From: a virus
IMG/VR virus record: IMGVR_UViG_3300026263_000200
Direction: 5' to 3' (one strand)
DNA length: 64,000 bases
The position numbers and the translations under genes were made by a program. Below the pieces are notes generated by a model. That model worked only from the letters and a program-made list of their open reading frames with translations. It had not been told where the DNA came from and ran no database searches. The stretch's first letter is position 1. Every line of letters begins with the position of its first letter. This document shows positions 25,281 to 33,361 of the stretch, in pieces.

Positions 25281-25439
25281 ATGGAGTTTATTACAGGAAG
25301 AATTAAAGAACTAACATCTTTACACGGTGGAGTATTAATCGGTTTAGGTGTTGTGGTTTTATTTTTTAGTCCACTAGCTAAAATTGCTGCTTGGGCAGCG
25401 ATTGCTTACGGCGCTTGGGCTATATTAAAGAAGGACTAA
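25281..25439 (+). CDS. small two-TM protein, holin candidate
   Basis: manually translated 52 aa (MEFITGRIKELTSLHGGVLIGLGVVVLFFSPLAKIAAWAAIAYGAWAILKKD), AGGAG RBS, precedes spanin pair. Confidence 0.5.
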   Translation: MEFITGRIKELTSLHGGVLIGLGVVVLFFSPLAKIAAWAAIAYGAWAILKKD

Positions 25440-25443
25440 AACA

Positions 25444-25920
25444 ATGTTTGGCACAATGAAAATGGTTATGGTTGTAATAATGATAGGCGGACTTGCTGGA
25501 GCAGGTATGTATGTTATGAAATTACGATCCGATAATGCTATTTTAAAAGCCAATCAAATTAAACTTGAAGAAGCGGTGAGTTCCCAAAAGGAACTCATTG
25601 CTAAACAGCAAGCAGACTTCAAAGAAATTTTAGAAGCAAATAAAAAATTTAACGAATTAGTTACCGCTCTTAAAAAAGATATAGATGATTTAGATAATAG
25701 ATTTAACAAAGGTGGAAGAGATTTTGGTAAACTTGCAATAGAAAAAACAGAAGCAATTGAAAGAATAATTAATGGCGCAAGTGATAAAGCATTAAGATGT
25801 GTTGAGATAGCAGGTGGGGCACCACTTACTGAACAAGAACTTAACGCAACTGTAAAATCAGAAATCAATAGAGAGTGTCCGAGTATCGCTAACCCGAATT
25901 ATGTACCGTATAATAATTAG
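25444..25920 (+). CDS. i-spanin (Rz-like)
   Basis: N-terminal TM plus long coiled coil, overlaps downstream lipoprotein gene. Confidence 0.65.
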   Translation: MFGTMKMVMVVIMIGGLAGAGMYVMKLRSDNAILKANQIKLEEAVSSQKELIAKQQADFKEILEANKKFNELVTALKKDIDDLDNRFNKGGRDFGKLAIEKTEAIERIINGASDKALRCVEIAGGAPLTEQELNATVKSEINRECPSIANPNYVPYNN

Positions 25921-26269
25921 TATATTAGTAGTATTGTTTTTAACAAGTTGCTCAGGTGTTAAAAAGTTAAGTATCTTCAAAGAAGAAGTACCTAGACAGA
26001 AATTAGATTTAGTTAAACCTACTATGCCTGAACTAGAAAAGTTGAAATGGATTATTATTACTTCTGATAATGCAGAAGAAGTATTCCAAAAGATGGAAGC
26101 AGCAGGACTTGATCCAGTAATATTTGGTTTAAGTGATAAAGACTTCCAATTAATCGCAAAAAACTTTGCTCAAATAAGAGCACACTTGAAACACACTAAT
26201 GATTTACTTGACCAATATAAAGAGTATTATGAACCAGACGATAAGAAAAATGAAAAGGAGAAAGAGTAA
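25901..26269 (+). CDS. o-spanin (Rz1-like) lipoprotein
   Basis: lipobox LTSC, Pro-containing linker, overlaps i-spanin. Confidence 0.65.
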   Translation: MYRIIISILVVLFLTSCSGVKKLSIFKEEVPRQKLDLVKPTMPELEKLKWIIITSDNAEEVFQKMEAAGLDPVIFGLSDKDFQLIAKNFAQIRAHLKHTNDLLDQYKEYYEPDDKKNEKEKE

Positions 26270-26461: not shown

Positions 26462-26599
26462 ATGGAAAATTGTAAGAACTGTAGTCACGAAGCACATTGT
26501 CCAGAAACTTGTTTTAAATGTGATTGTAAAAAATGTGATTGTTCAATTTGTGAGAAACCAAGACCTAATGTAAAAACAGGAGATGAAATAGTACAGTAA
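26462..26599 (+). CDS. Cys-rich metallothionein-like peptide (45 aa)
   Basis: manually translated MENCKNCSHEAHCPETCFKCDCKKCDCSICEKPRPNVKTGDEIVQ: 9 Cys + 2 His in first 30 aa. Confidence 0.55.
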   Translation: MENCKNCSHEAHCPETCFKCDCKKCDCSICEKPRPNVKTGDEIVQ

Positions 26600-26763
26600 T
26601 GGATAGTGAAGCAGTATTAATGTTGAGTAGATTGTGGCCAATGCTAGTAGCATTTATATTATTAATAGTTACTTTAGCACAATCACACTATAGAATTAAA
26701 GTGTTGGAAGAGAAAATTAAAGTAGCATTTGAACTTATTAATAAGTTAACAGACAAAAAATGA
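26599..26763 (+). CDS. small single-TM protein
   Basis: manually translated 54 aa ORF, TAATG coupling. Confidence 0.5.
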   Translation: MDSEAVLMLSRLWPMLVAFILLIVTLAQSHYRIKVLEEKIKVAFELINKLTDKK

Positions 26764-26838: not shown

Positions 26839-28467
26839 CTATTTAATAGAATAACAATTAATCTTTTCTTTTTTACCTTTAACAGTACAAATACCTAGTT
26901 TATAAAACTTAAAGTCTAAATCTTTTTTAGTATTTTGAGATATTACTATTGTAGTATTGAAATCTTTACTCTTACCTTCCAATCTACTTGCCAAATTAAC
27001 AGCGTCACCAATAACAGAATAATCAAAACGTTGTTCAGACCCCATATTACCTACAAGACACTCGCCAGTATTGATACCTATACCAATGTTTAAAGGTGGG
27101 TCAAACTCTCTACTCTTATTCATCTCCTTAACTGCTCTTCTCATTTGAAATGCAGATAGTACTGCTAGTTTTTTGTGTTCTGGATTATCAAGTGGTGCAT
27201 TCCAAAATGCCATTATACAATCACCCATATACTTATCAATAGTACCACCATTTTTTAATATTATCCCCGTCATTGCAGTTAAAAATTTGTTAACATATCT
27301 GGTAAGTTTTTCTGGATTACCTTTCATAGATTCCGATATAGGAGTAAAGCCACGTATATCAGAAAATAAAAACGTCATTTCTTTTCTTTCACCACCAAGT
27401 TTTAATAGAGATGGATTGTTTTGTAGTTTCTTAACCATATCTGGAGATAGATAGTGTTCAAATTGTTTTTTAATTTGTAGTCTTAATTTATTTTCTTTTG
27501 AATAGTTATTGTATGTTAACTGACCCCATATAATAGAACCTATTACAAGAGGACTAAACCAATCAGTTATGATTAAGTGTTGCGTCCATAGATAAGAACT
27601 TGCAAGTGTTAAATCAAATAAGTATCCACCAAACCATATCGCAGACCACATCACACCACATCTAGGTATAACTATGAGAAAGAATAGAGTACCTAATAAT
27701 ATAAAACCAAATTCAGCATATGGTAACCAATAAGGTCTACTAATAAAATTACCTGACAATAAAGTTTCTGTACTGATTGCCATAATTTCGTGTGTGTTTT
27801 TTAAACCATTAGGAGTAGTTACAAACGTAGAACCTTTGAACGTAGTACCTATGAAAACTATTTTACCTTTTACAGACGACCAATCTTTATCAGTAAAATC
27901 TATTCTAGGAATATGGTGTCTGAAATCTATCCAAATAGTATCTTCTGCTGATGTTTTTGCATTGATAACTTTTAAGATAACTTCAGGTATAGAATTATCA
28001 AGAGGTAATTTTCTTATAGTGCCATCTATATCAACTGGCACACTTACGTTGCCTATTGCTATTGCTTTACGTGAGATACTTTGTAGATTTTTTACTTCAT
28101 CCGTTTCAGTAAGTATGACTGGATATTTTGAAATCATTTTTAAAAACATTTCATCACCACCTAATCTATCTTTATGTGGGAAGACTACTTGAAGAACTAC
28201 TAGAGCGGCACCATTTTTATAAGCATTAATTATGACACGACCAAGTAAATCTCTCTTCCACGGCCATTGCCCATTCTTTTTTAATGCTTTGTCTGATATG
28301 TCTACTAGGACTAAACTCTTTGATTCATAATTTGTACCAAATTTTTGGTAGAAATCAAAGGTGTTTAGTTTTGCTGTTTGTAGTAGTACTGGATTTGATA
28401 AGTATATTCCAAGTAATATAATCAAAGTCAAATATACAGTCCACGATTTAGCCAATATTTTAATCAT
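26839..28467 (-). CDS. CHASE2-domain membrane adenylate cyclase (class III)
   Basis: N-term TM, CHASE2 motif GQWPWKR, three TMs, cyclase motifs FSDIRGFT, DKYMGDCIMAFW, GIGINTG, DYSVIGDAVNLASRLE. Confidence 0.92.
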   Translation of the reverse strand: MIKILAKSWTVYLTLIILLGIYLSNPVLLQTAKLNTFDFYQKFGTNYESKSLVLVDISDKALKKNGQWPWKRDLLGRVIINAYKNGAALVVLQVVFPHKDRLGGDEMFLKMISKYPVILTETDEVKNLQSISRKAIAIGNVSVPVDIDGTIRKLPLDNSIPEVILKVINAKTSAEDTIWIDFRHHIPRIDFTDKDWSSVKGKIVFIGTTFKGSTFVTTPNGLKNTHEIMAISTETLLSGNFISRPYWLPYAEFGFILLGTLFFLIVIPRCGVMWSAIWFGGYLFDLTLASSYLWTQHLIITDWFSPLVIGSIIWGQLTYNNYSKENKLRLQIKKQFEHYLSPDMVKKLQNNPSLLKLGGERKEMTFLFSDIRGFTPISESMKGNPEKLTRYVNKFLTAMTGIILKNGGTIDKYMGDCIMAFWNAPLDNPEHKKLAVLSAFQMRRAVKEMNKSREFDPPLNIGIGINTGECLVGNMGSEQRFDYSVIGDAVNLASRLEGKSKDFNTTIVISQNTKKDLDFKFYKLGICTVKGKKEKINCYSIK

Positions 28468-28473
28468 CTAGTA

Positions 28474-28499
28474 TATTTAGTACAGATATTTTATAAATA
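28474..28499. promoter_or_regulatory. divergent late promoters
   Basis: TATAAATA at 28492-28499 (+); variant ACTAAATA at 28481-28474 (-) just upstream of cyclase ATG. Confidence 0.6.
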
Positions 28500-28522
28500 T
28501 ATACATCAACGAGAGAGAGAAA

Positions 28523-28981
28523 ATGAGATTAATTACCATTATTTTAACAGTATTATTGTTAGGTTCTAGTGCTTATGCAAGTGAATTAGGATTTAAATTC
28601 CATAGTCCATCATTTTCTGGTAATGGAAAGTCATCACACTATCTAACGATAGAGAACATAGAGAAAACTAGAAAAGACGCTATAAAAGCAGCAAATAAAG
28701 CGGCGGCAGATAAAGCGGCGGCAGATGCTAAATCAACATCTATAGCAAAATTCAAAGCAAATATAGAGTCAAGATTTTATACTGCTCTTGCAAAACAAAT
28801 TACAGACAATGTATTTGGTACTGATGGTCTTCAACAAGACTCAGGTACATTTACAAATCCAGTTGGTGGAGAAACAGTTGAGTGGACAACACCATCAGGT
28901 ACAGGTAATGTCGTAGTAACTGTCACGGAGTCCGATGGAACTGTAACGACATTTACAATGCCTAAAGAGGACAATTCGTAA
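28523..28981 (+). CDS. csgF: curli assembly protein CsgF-like
   Basis: signal peptide then ELGFKFHSPSFSGNG, matching CsgF N-terminal F-x-(N/S)-P-x-F-x-G motif; adjacent to csgG. Confidence 0.75.
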   Translation: MRLITIILTVLLLGSSAYASELGFKFHSPSFSGNGKSSHYLTIENIEKTRKDAIKAANKAAADKAAADAKSTSIAKFKANIESRFYTALAKQITDNVFGTDGLQQDSGTFTNPVGGETVEWTTPSGTGNVVVTVTESDGTVTTFTMPKEDNS

Positions 28982-30135
28982 TGTTTAAATACATAAGTAT
29001 ATTTTTACTAACATTATTGTTAGTTGGATGTGCAGGTAAACCAAAGTTTGATATAAGAACTCAAACAGTTGCTTATAAAGACTTGTCAGTTATATCAGCA
29101 CCGAAAGGTGAACCAATTATAATTGCTGTCTATGACTTTTTAGATATGACAGGACAAAAGAAACCTGGTGGCAACTTTGCGTCTATGAGTACAGCAGTAA
29201 CTCAAGGTTCATATCAGTTGTTGATTAAAGCATTACAAGACGCAGGCGAAGGCAAATGGTTTAGAGTAGTAGAACGAGCAAGTTTACCAAGTCTATTACA
29301 AGAAAGAAAATTAATACGTTCTACAAGACAACAAGTTAATGGAGAAGGTGCAGAACCATTACCACCATTACTATTTGCAGGTGCATATATAACAGGTGGT
29401 ATTGTAGGATATGATAGTGATATTAAATCAGGTGGTTTAGGTGCTAGAATATTAGGTATTCAAAGCAACAAACAATTTAGACAAGATATAGTTACTATTA
29501 TATTAAGACTAGTCAATGTACAAACTGGTGAAGTTGTACTATCAACAACAGTTGAAAAGACTATTGTATCAACAATGACTGGTGGAGATATATTCAAGTA
29601 CTTTGATACTGATACAATGTTATTAGAAGTTGAAGCAGGATATGCTAAGAACGAACCAGTTACACTTGCAGTTAGAAAAGCAATTGAAAAAGGTGTAGTT
29701 GATGTTATTAATTTAGGTGCAAATAAAGGACTATGGGAGTTTGCTGTTGAAATAGTACCAACAAAAGATTTAAAAGTAGTACAAGATGATATTACAGTTG
29801 ATATGGGCGAAGTAATGCCAGAAAAAACTTATGAAGACTTTAAGAAAGAAAAGAAAGCTAGAAAAGAATTAAAGAAAGCACAAAAACTTGAAGTAAAAAA
29901 TTATAATAAAGCAAATGGAACAAAGTTTAAAACTTGGGACGAATATCAAGCACATTTAGAACATTTAGCGGCACTTGAAGCTAAAGAAATAGAAAAAGAA
30001 GAACGTAAGAACGGTATACAAGATAAAATAACAGAAGAAGAAGAGTGGAACCAAGTAGACGAAACAGTAGAGGAGAACAAGTCAGATGAAAAAGATAGTA
30101 ATGGCAATAGTGATTCTTCTAGCGACAACAATTAA
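28981..30135 (+). CDS. csgG: curli secretion channel CsgG-like lipoprotein with charged C-terminal extension
   Basis: lipobox LVGC; AVYDFLDMTGQKK, STAVTQG, WFRVVER, LLQERKLIR, GGIVGYD, NEPVTLAVRKAIE. Confidence 0.92.
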   Translation: MFKYISIFLLTLLLVGCAGKPKFDIRTQTVAYKDLSVISAPKGEPIIIAVYDFLDMTGQKKPGGNFASMSTAVTQGSYQLLIKALQDAGEGKWFRVVERASLPSLLQERKLIRSTRQQVNGEGAEPLPPLLFAGAYITGGIVGYDSDIKSGGLGARILGIQSNKQFRQDIVTIILRLVNVQTGEVVLSTTVEKTIVSTMTGGDIFKYFDTDTMLLEVEAGYAKNEPVTLAVRKAIEKGVVDVINLGANKGLWEFAVEIVPTKDLKVVQDDITVDMGEVMPEKTYEDFKKEKKARKELKKAQKLEVKNYNKANGTKFKTWDEYQAHLEHLAALEAKEIEKEERKNGIQDKITEEEEWNQVDETVEENKSDEKDSNGNSDSSSDNN

Positions 30136-31177
30136 TTGTTTCGCAGGTAATTCAGTTTATATCCAACAAGATAATCAAGACAGCGACGGATCAATCTTTA
30201 TAAAACAAGATGGTTCAGGTAATACTTTTGGGTATTCAACATCATATCCATTTAAAGTAAGTGGAGAGAACATCACAATCGTTATAAAACAAATAGGTGA
30301 TAATAATAAAACAGATTATTCAAATCACTTGACTTTTTATGGTGAGGATATGACTTTAGATTATACAGCAACTGGTGATGGTAATAAATTAAGAATAGAT
30401 AGTGATGATACGGATGCTACTGGACATTATTTAGACCACGATATTACAGGTGATTCAAATGTAGTAGATTATGATACCTGGGGAGATGATTCAACAAATT
30501 TCAATGTTGATTTAGATATTACTGGAGACTCAAATACATTTTGGGTACAGAATAGAGGAGATAATCACTTCTTATATGTTCTTATATCAGGTGATAGTAA
30601 TACCGTAGAGTGGTATAGTACAACAGATTCAGTAGGGTTTAATACAAACTCTAACAAGGCAATTGGTCCACAATCAACATCACACGGACAGTTTGCAGAC
30701 AGTTCAGGTAGTGAAGGTGCAAGTGCAGACATTTATATTATTGGTAACTCAAATGTAATACATACTTCAACATATGGTACAGGTAACTATCAACTACACG
30801 ACATTATAGGTTCTTCAAACCTTTTAGATATACACTCTAGTTACACTGGTTCTGATACAGACCCATATGGAGACTCAATGATTATATCAGGCGATAGTAA
30901 TTATTTAAGGACTTATATATCTGGTGATAGTAATACAATAAGATTACATATGGCAGGTGGAAATAATACTGCTAAAATTTATCTTTATACAGATAGTTCA
31001 GTAATAAACTTTGCTCAAACAGGTGGTGGCAACACAGGTCAAGTTACTATATCAGGTGATTCAATTTACGATTACACATTAAACTTTTCACAAAATGGAT
31101 CCGATAATTGTACATATTCGTACAACAGAAACAATCAAACAGCAGATGTAACTGCTACAGTATCAAACGGATGTTAA
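30086..31177 (+). CDS. secreted curlin-like beta-solenoid repeat protein
   Basis: signal peptide; repeated (Q/I)-x-G-D-x-N units (IKQDGSGN, KQIGDNN, ITGDSN, ISGDSN, QTGGGN). Confidence 0.7.
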   Translation: MKKIVMAIVILLATTINCFAGNSVYIQQDNQDSDGSIFIKQDGSGNTFGYSTSYPFKVSGENITIVIKQIGDNNKTDYSNHLTFYGEDMTLDYTATGDGNKLRIDSDDTDATGHYLDHDITGDSNVVDYDTWGDDSTNFNVDLDITGDSNTFWVQNRGDNHFLYVLISGDSNTVEWYSTTDSVGFNTNSNKAIGPQSTSHGQFADSSGSEGASADIYIIGNSNVIHTSTYGTGNYQLHDIIGSSNLLDIHSSYTGSDTDPYGDSMIISGDSNYLRTYISGDSNTIRLHMAGGNNTAKIYLYTDSSVINFAQTGGGNTGQVTISGDSIYDYTLNFSQNGSDNCTYSYNRNNQTADVTATVSNGC

Positions 31178-33361
31178 ATGAAACTATTTCATAATCCTTG
31201 GGAAAAATGGGCGATAATAATTTGTGTTACTGTATTATTAGTATTAGGAATATCATCAGCTAAATCTCAAATAACAAGTCCAAAAGTTGGCGAAGTCATA
31301 GGTCAAATGGGTACGACTTGGAATGAAAGAGAAGGATCAACTCAAAATACCTCAATGGGTTATGAGTTGCAGATGAATGACTTTTTACAAACAGGTGAAG
31401 ATGGTGGTATGATATTATCTTATGTTGATAATACTAAATTTACAATGGGACCAAATACAGAATTAACTATTGATGAATTTGCTTTTGATACTTCTGTTGT
31501 ACCAATAGAAATTGCAATGAACATATCGGTTAATGTTGGTACATTTACATATGAATCAGGTCAAGTATCTACATTAGGTGGAGAAGTTAATATTAATGCT
31601 GGTAATGCTACAATTACAGTACAAGGTACTGCTTTTTCAGGTACGGTAACATCTTCAGGTCAAGCAACTATTACTTTGTTGCCAGATAGTTCTGGTGCAG
31701 TAGGACAAGTAACTGTATCCAATGACGCAGGTTCTCAAACAATAACTAACGCTTACAATTCAGTAACCGTTTTATCAAATGACTTAGCACCAACACCTCC
31801 AAAAATAGAAACTAATAAACAAGATATTATTGAGTTAGATGAATTTGAAGAAGAAATAAAAGATGAAAGTCAAAAACATTTTGGTGATATGGATTCAAAA
31901 TCTGAAATGTCTAAAGAAGAATCTGAAGCACAGGAGATGGAAGAGGCAATCATAAATGAAGAAGTAAGTATAGTAGAAGATAGTAATACAATTGTTGCTA
32001 CAGATTTATCAGTTGGTGAAACAGACGCAATAGTTGAAACAAAATCAGCAGAAGAAACAGCATTAGTTGAAATAGAAGAAGTTGATACATCTTATTATGA
32101 CGAATGGGAAAGTGATTTAAAAGATTGGGGTTATATAGATGAAGATAACCAGATTTCAGTTTGGGATGCCGAAGGTGAAAAAACTATGGATTGGGATGAC
32201 GCAAAGAAAATGTATGCAGAAATGGATCAAGCATACTTTGACGCCATTGGTTGTTCAGATTGTACTTGGGATACTATTGATTGGGATACTATTGATTGGG
32301 ATGAGGTAGATTGGGATGCTTATTCTGACAAGTATAATGAACTATTAGAAGACTATGGTTTAACTTCTTGGAATGTAGAAGTAGAAGAGCAAGATGTAGT
32401 TGAAGATACAAAAGATGAAACAGAAGTACAAGCAATTGAAGGATATACTTGGGAAGATTTTGCTTTAGATGATGACTACTATAACAATGCAGAATACAAA
32501 GCACAAGGTGGACCTCCAACATTAACTGTACAAAACTATTGTGAGTACAATGGATACGAAGACTACTGGTGCAACCAAGACTATGTTGATTACTTAAATG
32601 ACTGGTACAAAGATGACTGGACTTTAAAAGTAACCAATGATAGTTGGACTAAAGAATCTAAAAAGATATTTGGTAAATTATATGGTTGGTGTGGATCGTG
32701 GCCGAATTATAAAATGTGTGATGACCAACCTAAACCCTGGAAGATGAAAGACTTAAAGAAGACTTACATAACTGATTGGGAGTGGGCAGATTGGGACACA
32801 TATTGGGACGCATTATACGATTGGTGGTACACAGGTTACGATTACAATAATGAAGATGATGAGACCAATTGGGAAGATGAATATTCTTATGAAGATGACT
32901 ATGATATAGACGCAGAATTAGAATTATTATTAGCAAGTTATGATGAAGAAGAGTGTTTAAAATATGGATACTATTGGGACAATGCTAATCAATCTTGTGG
33001 TAGTGAATGGGTTGATAACGAAGGTAATGAAACTTCGGTAACTGCTAGTGGTGAAACATTAAACTACTCTACTGGAGATGTAACTCAAACTCTAACTACA
33101 ACAGATGGAGTAACAGGTGCGACTTCAAGTGCAACTTCCACTGGAAGAGTATCAACATTAGGCAATGATTTTGACGCAGATTCAAGTACAAGTGGCGATT
33201 ACACAATCATAAATAGATATAACGATAATCATAGAGCATATGTAAAGACTGAAACGAGTAAAGAGGCAGATATTCAGATTTTACAAGATAAAGAAGCTCA
33301 ACACCTTGACGTAGGAAATTCTTCTACACAAAATAATATTACAGTAATACAAACGGATTAA
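31178..33361 (+). CDS. FecR-domain protein with acidic Trp-rich region
   Basis: N-terminal TM/signal; LQMNDFLQTGEDG...FTMGPNTELTIDEF...ATITVQGTAF FecR-like; D/E/W-rich middle. Confidence 0.72.
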   Translation: MKLFHNPWEKWAIIICVTVLLVLGISSAKSQITSPKVGEVIGQMGTTWNEREGSTQNTSMGYELQMNDFLQTGEDGGMILSYVDNTKFTMGPNTELTIDEFAFDTSVVPIEIAMNISVNVGTFTYESGQVSTLGGEVNINAGNATITVQGTAFSGTVTSSGQATITLLPDSSGAVGQVTVSNDAGSQTITNAYNSVTVLSNDLAPTPPKIETNKQDIIELDEFEEEIKDESQKHFGDMDSKSEMSKEESEAQEMEEAIINEEVSIVEDSNTIVATDLSVGETDAIVETKSAEETALVEIEEVDTSYYDEWESDLKDWGYIDEDNQISVWDAEGEKTMDWDDAKKMYAEMDQAYFDAIGCSDCTWDTIDWDTIDWDEVDWDAYSDKYNELLEDYGLTSWNVEVEEQDVVEDTKDETEVQAIEGYTWEDFALDDDYYNNAEYKAQGGPPTLTVQNYCEYNGYEDYWCNQDYVDYLNDWYKDDWTLKVTNDSWTKESKKIFGKLYGWCGSWPNYKMCDDQPKPWKMKDLKKTYITDWEWADWDTYWDALYDWWYTGYDYNNEDDETNWEDEYSYEDDYDIDAELELLLASYDEEECLKYGYYWDNANQSCGSEWVDNEGNETSVTASGETLNYSTGDVTQTLTTTDGVTGATSSATSTGRVSTLGNDFDADSSTSGDYTIINRYNDNHRAYVKTETSKEADIQILQDKEAQHLDVGNSSTQNNITVIQTD
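32267..32317 (+). repeat. 15-bp tandem repeat encoding WDTID/WDEVD
   Basis: tgggatactattgat x2, tgggatgaggtagat, tgggat. Confidence 0.85.

Follow-up and report, generated by a model that had tools for sequence, protein, structure and literature searches.

The viral record IMGVR_UViG_3300026263_000200 (IMG/VR) was analyzed over a window of 64,000 nucleotides, in which a locus at positions 26839-33361 codes for five contiguous envelope genes. These are a CHASE2-domain class III adenylate cyclase of 542 amino acids (26839..28467, minus strand) and, on the plus strand, a CsgF homologue with a signal peptide (28523..28981), a CsgG outer-membrane pore lipoprotein with an LVGC lipobox (28981..30135), a secreted curlin-like beta-solenoid repeat protein of 363 amino acids (30086..31177), and a FecR-domain protein of 727 amino acids (31178..33361). 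The open reading frames (ORFs) lie exactly where the first-pass annotation had placed them, and the cyclase is the sole convincing minus-strand gene, as all remaining minus-strand ORFs of at least 100 amino acids overlap plus-strand genes. Judged from the sequences of these genes and of their bacterial counterparts, the block is most plausibly a curli export cassette joined to a FecR-CHASE2 receptor pair.

The window phage is T4-like, and because its DNA polymerase (gp43) is 74% identical to that of Pelagibacter phage Mosig (next best, 51%), its host probably belongs to the SAR11 bacteria; a complete relative (G254), with core proteins mostly 80 to 95% identical, stood in for the whole genome. 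The gene block itself is not new, and the window has one clade's version of the curli-FecR-cyclase block known from pelagiphages. The first-pass annotation described csgF and csgG as occurring in marine T4-like phages mostly as an isolated pair, but the full set of CsgF, CsgG, CsgA/B, FecR, a second curlin, and adenylate cyclase is already published for pelagiphage podoviruses and myoviruses (PMC9599517; Wittmers et al. 2022), with an argument for selection on the whole unit and with phage curli genes present at all 65 GOV2.0 ocean stations. The cultured phages HTVC008M and Melnitz have the order csgF-csgG-curlin-fecR-curlin-cyclase. The window shares with this pelagiphage type VIII secretion system region (PMC9599517; PMC7029224, Zaragoza-Solas et al. 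2020) the same five gene types in one block of a T4-like marine phage, as well as the order of csgF, csgG, the curlin-like gene, and fecR. Its cyclase is homologous to the HTVC008M/Melnitz cyclase (tblastn E 3e-82 over 95% of the length), with 34% identity to HTVC008M for the cyclase and 46% for CsgG. In contrast to the pelagiphage region, the window has its cyclase inverted ahead of csgF on a two-way late promoter, one 363-amino-acid curlin instead of two, and a FecR protein of 727 instead of ∼370 amino acids. The second curlin after fecR, which is listed as frequent but not obligatory (PMC9599517), is absent across the entire long-FecR clade.

Our survey covered ∼160 viral loci. Among 82 distinct csgG loci, half of them baited with the cyclase, the cyclase is codirectional in 48 and divergent in 22, and 12 loci end at contig edges; no csgG locus with enough flanking DNA lacked a cyclase, although this is partly biased by the cyclase bait. 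The cyclase and FecR genes stay beside csgFG in related phages, as expected of the five-gene unit proposed in the first pass. A quick cyclase tree places the phage cyclases on one side of a branch and bacterial ones opposite, and two separate inverted groups (support 95 and 100) fall among codirectional relatives, each still attached to csgF. In a further locus (L164) there is a third, convergent arrangement with the cyclase inverted downstream, and linkage has therefore been kept while orientation is free. The block looks accessory, because Mosig, the closest cultured relative, gave no csgG or cyclase match. A second, divergent cyclase gene is present near the module in L134, L138, L140, and L010. 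We also note a viral contig (L058:1519-9004) that has genes for a 1299-amino-acid protein with a FecR domain and for a CHASE2 cyclase, together with fragments of type I secretion-like genes, but has no csgFG; this is a second way of wiring FecR to a cyclase in a virus.

The cyclase and csgF are separated by a 55-bp intergenic gap (28468-28522), and the back-to-back late-promoter motifs reported there in the first pass are present in the sequence and are of the T4 type. The plus-strand box, TATAAATA (28492..28499), serves csgF-csgG-curlin-fecR and is conserved in position, lying ∼30 nt upstream of csgF in nearly all loci of the long-FecR clade. The minus-strand box, ACTAAATA (28474..28481), assigned from sequence, is 6 nt ahead of the cyclase ATG, and we infer a near-leaderless cyclase transcript. 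In 20 of the 27 divergent loci, but in none of the 24 others, a TAAATA lies on the minus strand no more than 30 nt from the csgF box; these loci are related, so that few independent events are represented, and the pattern supports late coexpression. Every one of the eight copies of TATAAATA in the window lies on the coding strand, five or more of them within ∼30 nt of an ORF start. Since the raw count is not above chance (8 versus ∼10), the late promoters are assigned solely by position and conservation; scans for sigma-70 promoters gave results at chance level. The conservation of late boxes among related loci supports the proposal that the block is coregulated and made late.

Late promoters also fit the suggestion, made in the first-pass annotation and in PMC9004378, that the block controls when the cell lyses, with CsgG in a pinholin-like role or with cyclic AMP (cAMP) acting on the adjacent spanins. 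The claim that the block sits right after holin and spanin genes is half right: Rz/Rz1-like spanins (25444-26269) lie ∼0.6 kb from it, with three small ORFs between them and the cyclase, but no holin was identified in the window, and assignment of a holin to either 25281-25439 or 26599-26763 is unsupported. In T4, superinfection sensing delays lysis, which counts in favor of such a role, but a CsgG outer-membrane pore cannot depolarize the inner membrane as pinholins do. Of 46 well-flanked loci, only 14 have spanins next to the block (the search detects no spanins other than homologues of those in the window), and in HTVC008M and Melnitz the block sits away from spanins, between ssb and tail genes; position is thus little support for lysis control, and the absence of csgG and cyclase matches from Mosig also counts against it. 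The inference of lysis timing from gene position is not supported by these comparisons, and we consider this role very doubtful.

The export components are readily recognized. CsgF matches Pfam PF10614 (E 2e-12) and CsgG matches PF03783 (E 1e-49), the latter aligning with Escherichia coli CsgG across residues 8 to 260 and carrying a charged C-terminal tail of ∼120 amino acids, the length of which varies among relatives. The repeat protein has a signal peptide, ∼23-amino-acid beta-solenoid repeats, and 13 GxxN turns. Its structural model (predicted local distance difference test, 74) is a beta-solenoid with curli CsgA (8c50) as the best structural match (Z 26.2, 20% identity, root mean square deviation [rmsd] 8.8; VIA-align against 48,161 chains) and the next match at Z 18.9; Foldseek returned nothing significant for this protein, and Pfam gave no match, including to the curlin family. 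The block thus has in common with the curli systems of E. coli and Alphaproteobacteria a CsgG lipoprotein pore, CsgF, and a signal-peptide-bearing solenoid subunit of the CsgA fold, but the phage solenoid differs in its degenerate Gln ladder and Cys end. The curlin kernel is N-x-hydrophobic-x-hydrophobic-x-Q, and degenerate curlin classes exist (PMC10192328). In this clade the Asn turns are retained, only ∼27% of turns are preceded by Gln, and a Cys pair at the C terminus (C342 and C363) is invariant and may cap the solenoid.

The presence of CsgG, CsgF, and a CsgA-fold protein together favors a published hypothesis (PMC7029224, PMC9599517), namely, that the block mainly makes curli-like amyloid fibers on infected cells, for "sibling capture" aggregation or as a superinfection shield, with FecR and the cyclase as accessory regulators rather than a relay served by the pore; late expression fits as well. 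We regard it as rather unlikely, however, as the Gln ladder is degenerate, the Cys pair may cap the solenoid, and Melnitz infections showed no clumping (PMC9004378). Fibers would also leave unexplained a curlin-type end on the FecR protein (described below) and the persistence of cyclase linkage through inversions.

The minus-strand protein has Pfam matches to CHASE2 (E 1e-27) and Guanylate_cyc (7e-25), arranged as an N-terminal transmembrane (TM) segment, a periplasmic CHASE2 domain, a further TM region, and a cytoplasmic cyclase domain, and its PDB matches are class III cyclases such as CyaB. All 50 homologues retain the catalytic set, position 484 being S or T; the set comprises two metal-binding residues (D370 and D416), two adenine-specifying residues (K412 and S484), and a transition-state pair (N491 and R495); given this conservation, the phage cyclase is probably active. 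The FecR protein is composed of a signal peptide, a FecR domain (amino acids ∼33 to 210), an acidic disordered linker, a clade-specific region rich in D, W, Y, and Cys (∼300 to 615), and a C-terminal beta domain. The Pfam FecR match of the window protein alone is weak (E 2e-4, below the cutoff), but 36 of 36 relatives match (E up to 0.01), and its model matches PupR/FecR folds (PupR 6ovm, Z 15.4, rmsd 2.1). The middle region (300 to 615) has no atlas match and no clear fold match; it is helical and W/Y/D-rich with no repeat, and on this ground we rejected the idea that the long FecR arose by fusion to the second curlin.

In bacteria, genes for FecR and CHASE2 are linked, a point that we did not find in the literature on the phage block. 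The phage-type FecR profile matches 44 of 121 alphaproteobacterial genomes, and CHASE2 is present in 41 of these 44 as well (genome co-occurrence of FecR and CHASE2, 41/9/3/68), and 23 of 108 alphaproteobacterial CHASE2 genes are within 5 kb of a phage-type FecR, versus 0.73 expected (uncorrected for kinship). Many of these neighbors are complete CHASE2 cyclases, with genes for exported FecR proteins or for giant adhesin-like proteins alongside, and at several of the loci the FecR domain is itself near the start of a giant adhesin-like protein. In Sinorhizobium meliloti, CHASE2 cyclases answer an external protein via the outer-membrane protein NsrA, and smc02177, coding for a FecR domain, adjoins cyaD1 (PMC13001267, PMC5498481); in Burkholderia, a LysM-FecR protein occurs with a CHASE2 kinase (PMC5192318). 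A csgF search of 251 Alphaproteobacteria and 250 Gammaproteobacteria-class genomes yielded a small sample of eight csgF loci over the cutoff. All seven well-flanked csgFG loci have csgG, most with recognizable curlin genes, and none has FecR or a CHASE2 cyclase within ∼8 kb, in agreement with PMC9599517. Because FecR genes of this type are near CHASE2 genes in Alphaproteobacteria far more often than by chance whereas the bacterial csgFG loci have neither, the phage appears to join two bacterial modules. In published accounts of the phage block we found no mention of CHASE2, of FecR-CHASE2 pairing, or of a curlin-type FecR end, and the main text of PMC9599517 never mentions CHASE.

In common with the bacterial receptors (S. 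meliloti NsrA with CyaK/CyaD1/CyaD2 and Clr, and the Burkholderia system), the phage block has an exported FecR-domain protein beside a CHASE2 membrane enzyme, and signaling from the outside to the cytoplasm is proposed for it too. It differs in that its outer-membrane part is a curli pore plus curlin and in that no Clr/CRP-type receptor was found. A SAR11-family genome (G113; L220:6049-10919) has three consecutive genes, coding for a CHASE2 protein that lacks a cyclase domain, a probable outer-membrane/TPR protein, and FecR, and adjoining a two-partner secretion locus.

With Fec/Pup signaling (FecA-FecR-FecI) the block shares a FecR-fold periplasmic domain but has no cytoplasmic anti-sigma domain, extracytoplasmic function sigma factor, or TonB-dependent receptor. 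These differences bear on the idea that CsgG, as an ungated pore, lets in nutrients or iron chelates while FecR takes part in iron-type signaling. Without a reported csgE in these regions the pore may stand open, as raised in PMC9599517 and PMC7029224. However, apart from its lack of an anti-sigma domain, the FecR protein carries a signal peptide of the cleavable type, CHASE2 is the partner of its bacterial relatives, and late expression is poorly timed for nutrient uptake. Import is the least probable of the functions considered here.

The FecR protein ends in two hydrophobic-x-hydrophobic-x-Gln strands (33266..33361, plus strand), a pattern that agrees with the curlin kernel (PMC10192328). 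Such a C-terminal strand is present in 48 of 49 phage FecR proteins, compared with 1 of 860 other ORFs and ∼4 to 5% of shuffles, and in none of 16 bacterial FecR proteins beside CHASE2. Q703 and Q725 of the window protein are 22 amino acids apart, which is one curlin period, and the second strand is found 22 residues upstream in 17 of 21 long-form FecR proteins. A similar end is seen in second curlins (24 of 31) and in several bacterial curlins. At the other end of the protein, the FecR N-subdomain is similar (E 5e-4; rmsd 1.0 over 61 columns) to 5ix9, the anchoring domain of the MpIBP adhesin, for which a role as a plug on the periplasmic face of an outer-membrane pore has been proposed (bioRxiv 10.1101/198937). 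Retention-module adhesins (LapA and MpIBP) use type I secretion and TolC, whereas the phage FecR has a Sec signal and would use CsgG. Together, the curlin-type end and the likeness to 5ix9 suggest a tether from curlin or the CsgG pore to CHASE2. Short proteins with weak similarity to the FecR N terminus are encoded upstream of the module in L022, L105-L111, and L114 (128 to 156 amino acids) and between curlin and fecR in L101/L103 (123 amino acids).

We lean modestly toward the block being a late-made, phage-built trans-envelope receptor, in which FecR, CHASE2, and cAMP form a pathway fed by a curli-type pore. CsgG and CsgF would form an outer-membrane pore displaying the curlin-like solenoid, and the Sec-exported FecR protein would keep its folded FecR domain in the periplasm, controlling the CHASE2 sensor of the inner-membrane cyclase, while its curlin-type C-terminal strands would dock on curlin or CsgF at the pore. 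Surface events (binding, pulling, or the curlin cap being lost) would then affect cAMP production. The phage would have combined two bacterial modules, a FecR-CHASE2 cyclase pair and a curli export cassette, with the curli pore filling the position often taken in bacteria by a type I-secreted adhesin or a separate outer-membrane protein. The acidic linker is possibly threaded through CsgG, although this specific version is tentative and a good deal less probable than the receptor in general. A fuller scheme is more speculative still: the curli pore is itself the receptor, holding a FecR-curlin chimera part-way through CsgG with the FecR plug on the CHASE2 cyclase and the curlin tip on the surface solenoid, and it brings cAMP signaling into a host without its own cAMP system, acting via a probably phage-encoded cAMP receptor and adjusting late infection to cell or phage contact.

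Several observations weigh against the receptor interpretation. Some 75 to 80% of bacterial CHASE2 genes have no such FecR nearby, and in S. meliloti smc02177 is dispensable for signal perception (PMC5498481). Similarity of the FecR C terminus to curlin profiles is weak (best hhalign probability, 29%), so the tether depends on a short motif, and the folded, Cys-rich middle of the long FecR would be hard to thread through CsgG. Searches of five phage records, two of them complete relatives, found no PF00027 (cyclic nucleotide monophosphate [cNMP]-binding), USP, or GAF domain, and PF00027 is present in just 2 of 61 SAR11-family genomes, although these genomes are incomplete and the host assignment is inferential. 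The same 61 genomes have only two class III cyclases, both matching phage contigs in those assemblies. The sampled SAR11 genomes thus almost never carry cyclases or cNMP receptors, which we also did not find noted in the literature on the block, and the cAMP target is the main gap in the signaling interpretation. A metallophosphoesterase in relatives was considered as a cAMP phosphodiesterase and rejected, being a lone ∼360-amino-acid gene far from the block and probably gp47. A predicted complex of the CHASE2 and FecR domains scored 0.00, which is no answer and carries no weight either way. Of the first-pass view of a coregulated surface-to-cytoplasm signaling unit, then, the linkage, late boxes, catalytic residues, and bacterial FecR-CHASE2 pairing stand in support, while the novelty of the gene set and lysis timing from position fall away.

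Phage curli genes have so far been discussed in terms of fibers and sibling capture, import, or lysis control (PMC7029224, PMC9004378), and the FecR-CHASE2 pairing and curlin-type FecR end recast the block as a sensor. If this is correct, a lytic phage builds its own envelope-spanning second-messenger pathway and puts CsgG to a nonfiber use, the orphan CHASE2 domain gains a possible partner, and SAR11 infections involve a cAMP target yet to be named.

A candidate sixth member of the block lies outside the bounds drawn in the first pass and codes for a 54-amino-acid single-TM/coiled-coil protein (26599..26763, plus strand). It is found in 71 loci and moves with the block in the long-FecR clade, including at loci away from spanins. 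In the window it stands where pelagiphage regions have a GFPI-type TM pair, which flanks short-FecR modules; the two never share a locus, and hhalign showed no homology between them. Small membrane genes annotated as histidine kinases ("HK") precede csgF in the pelagiphage region (PMC9599517), and the 54-amino-acid protein may be the counterpart of these short proteins.

Searching GTDB with the phage FecR profile gave 14 full-length matches, which we read as misbinned phage contigs and rejected as evidence that bacteria have the whole block; they are in low-GC metagenome-assembled genomes (MAGs) and have the phage gene order, with T4-like neighbors in those inspected. These fourteen module-carrying MAG contigs (L162-L175) are labeled Pelagibacter, Flavobacteriaceae, Synechococcus, and others. 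A 1.5-kb record labeled as a Salmonella phage (OR851715.1) has a csgG match and is probably host DNA. Between the spanins and the module, a plus-strand ORF of 45 amino acids (26462-26599) has eight Cys and two His residues, a metallothionein-like composition.

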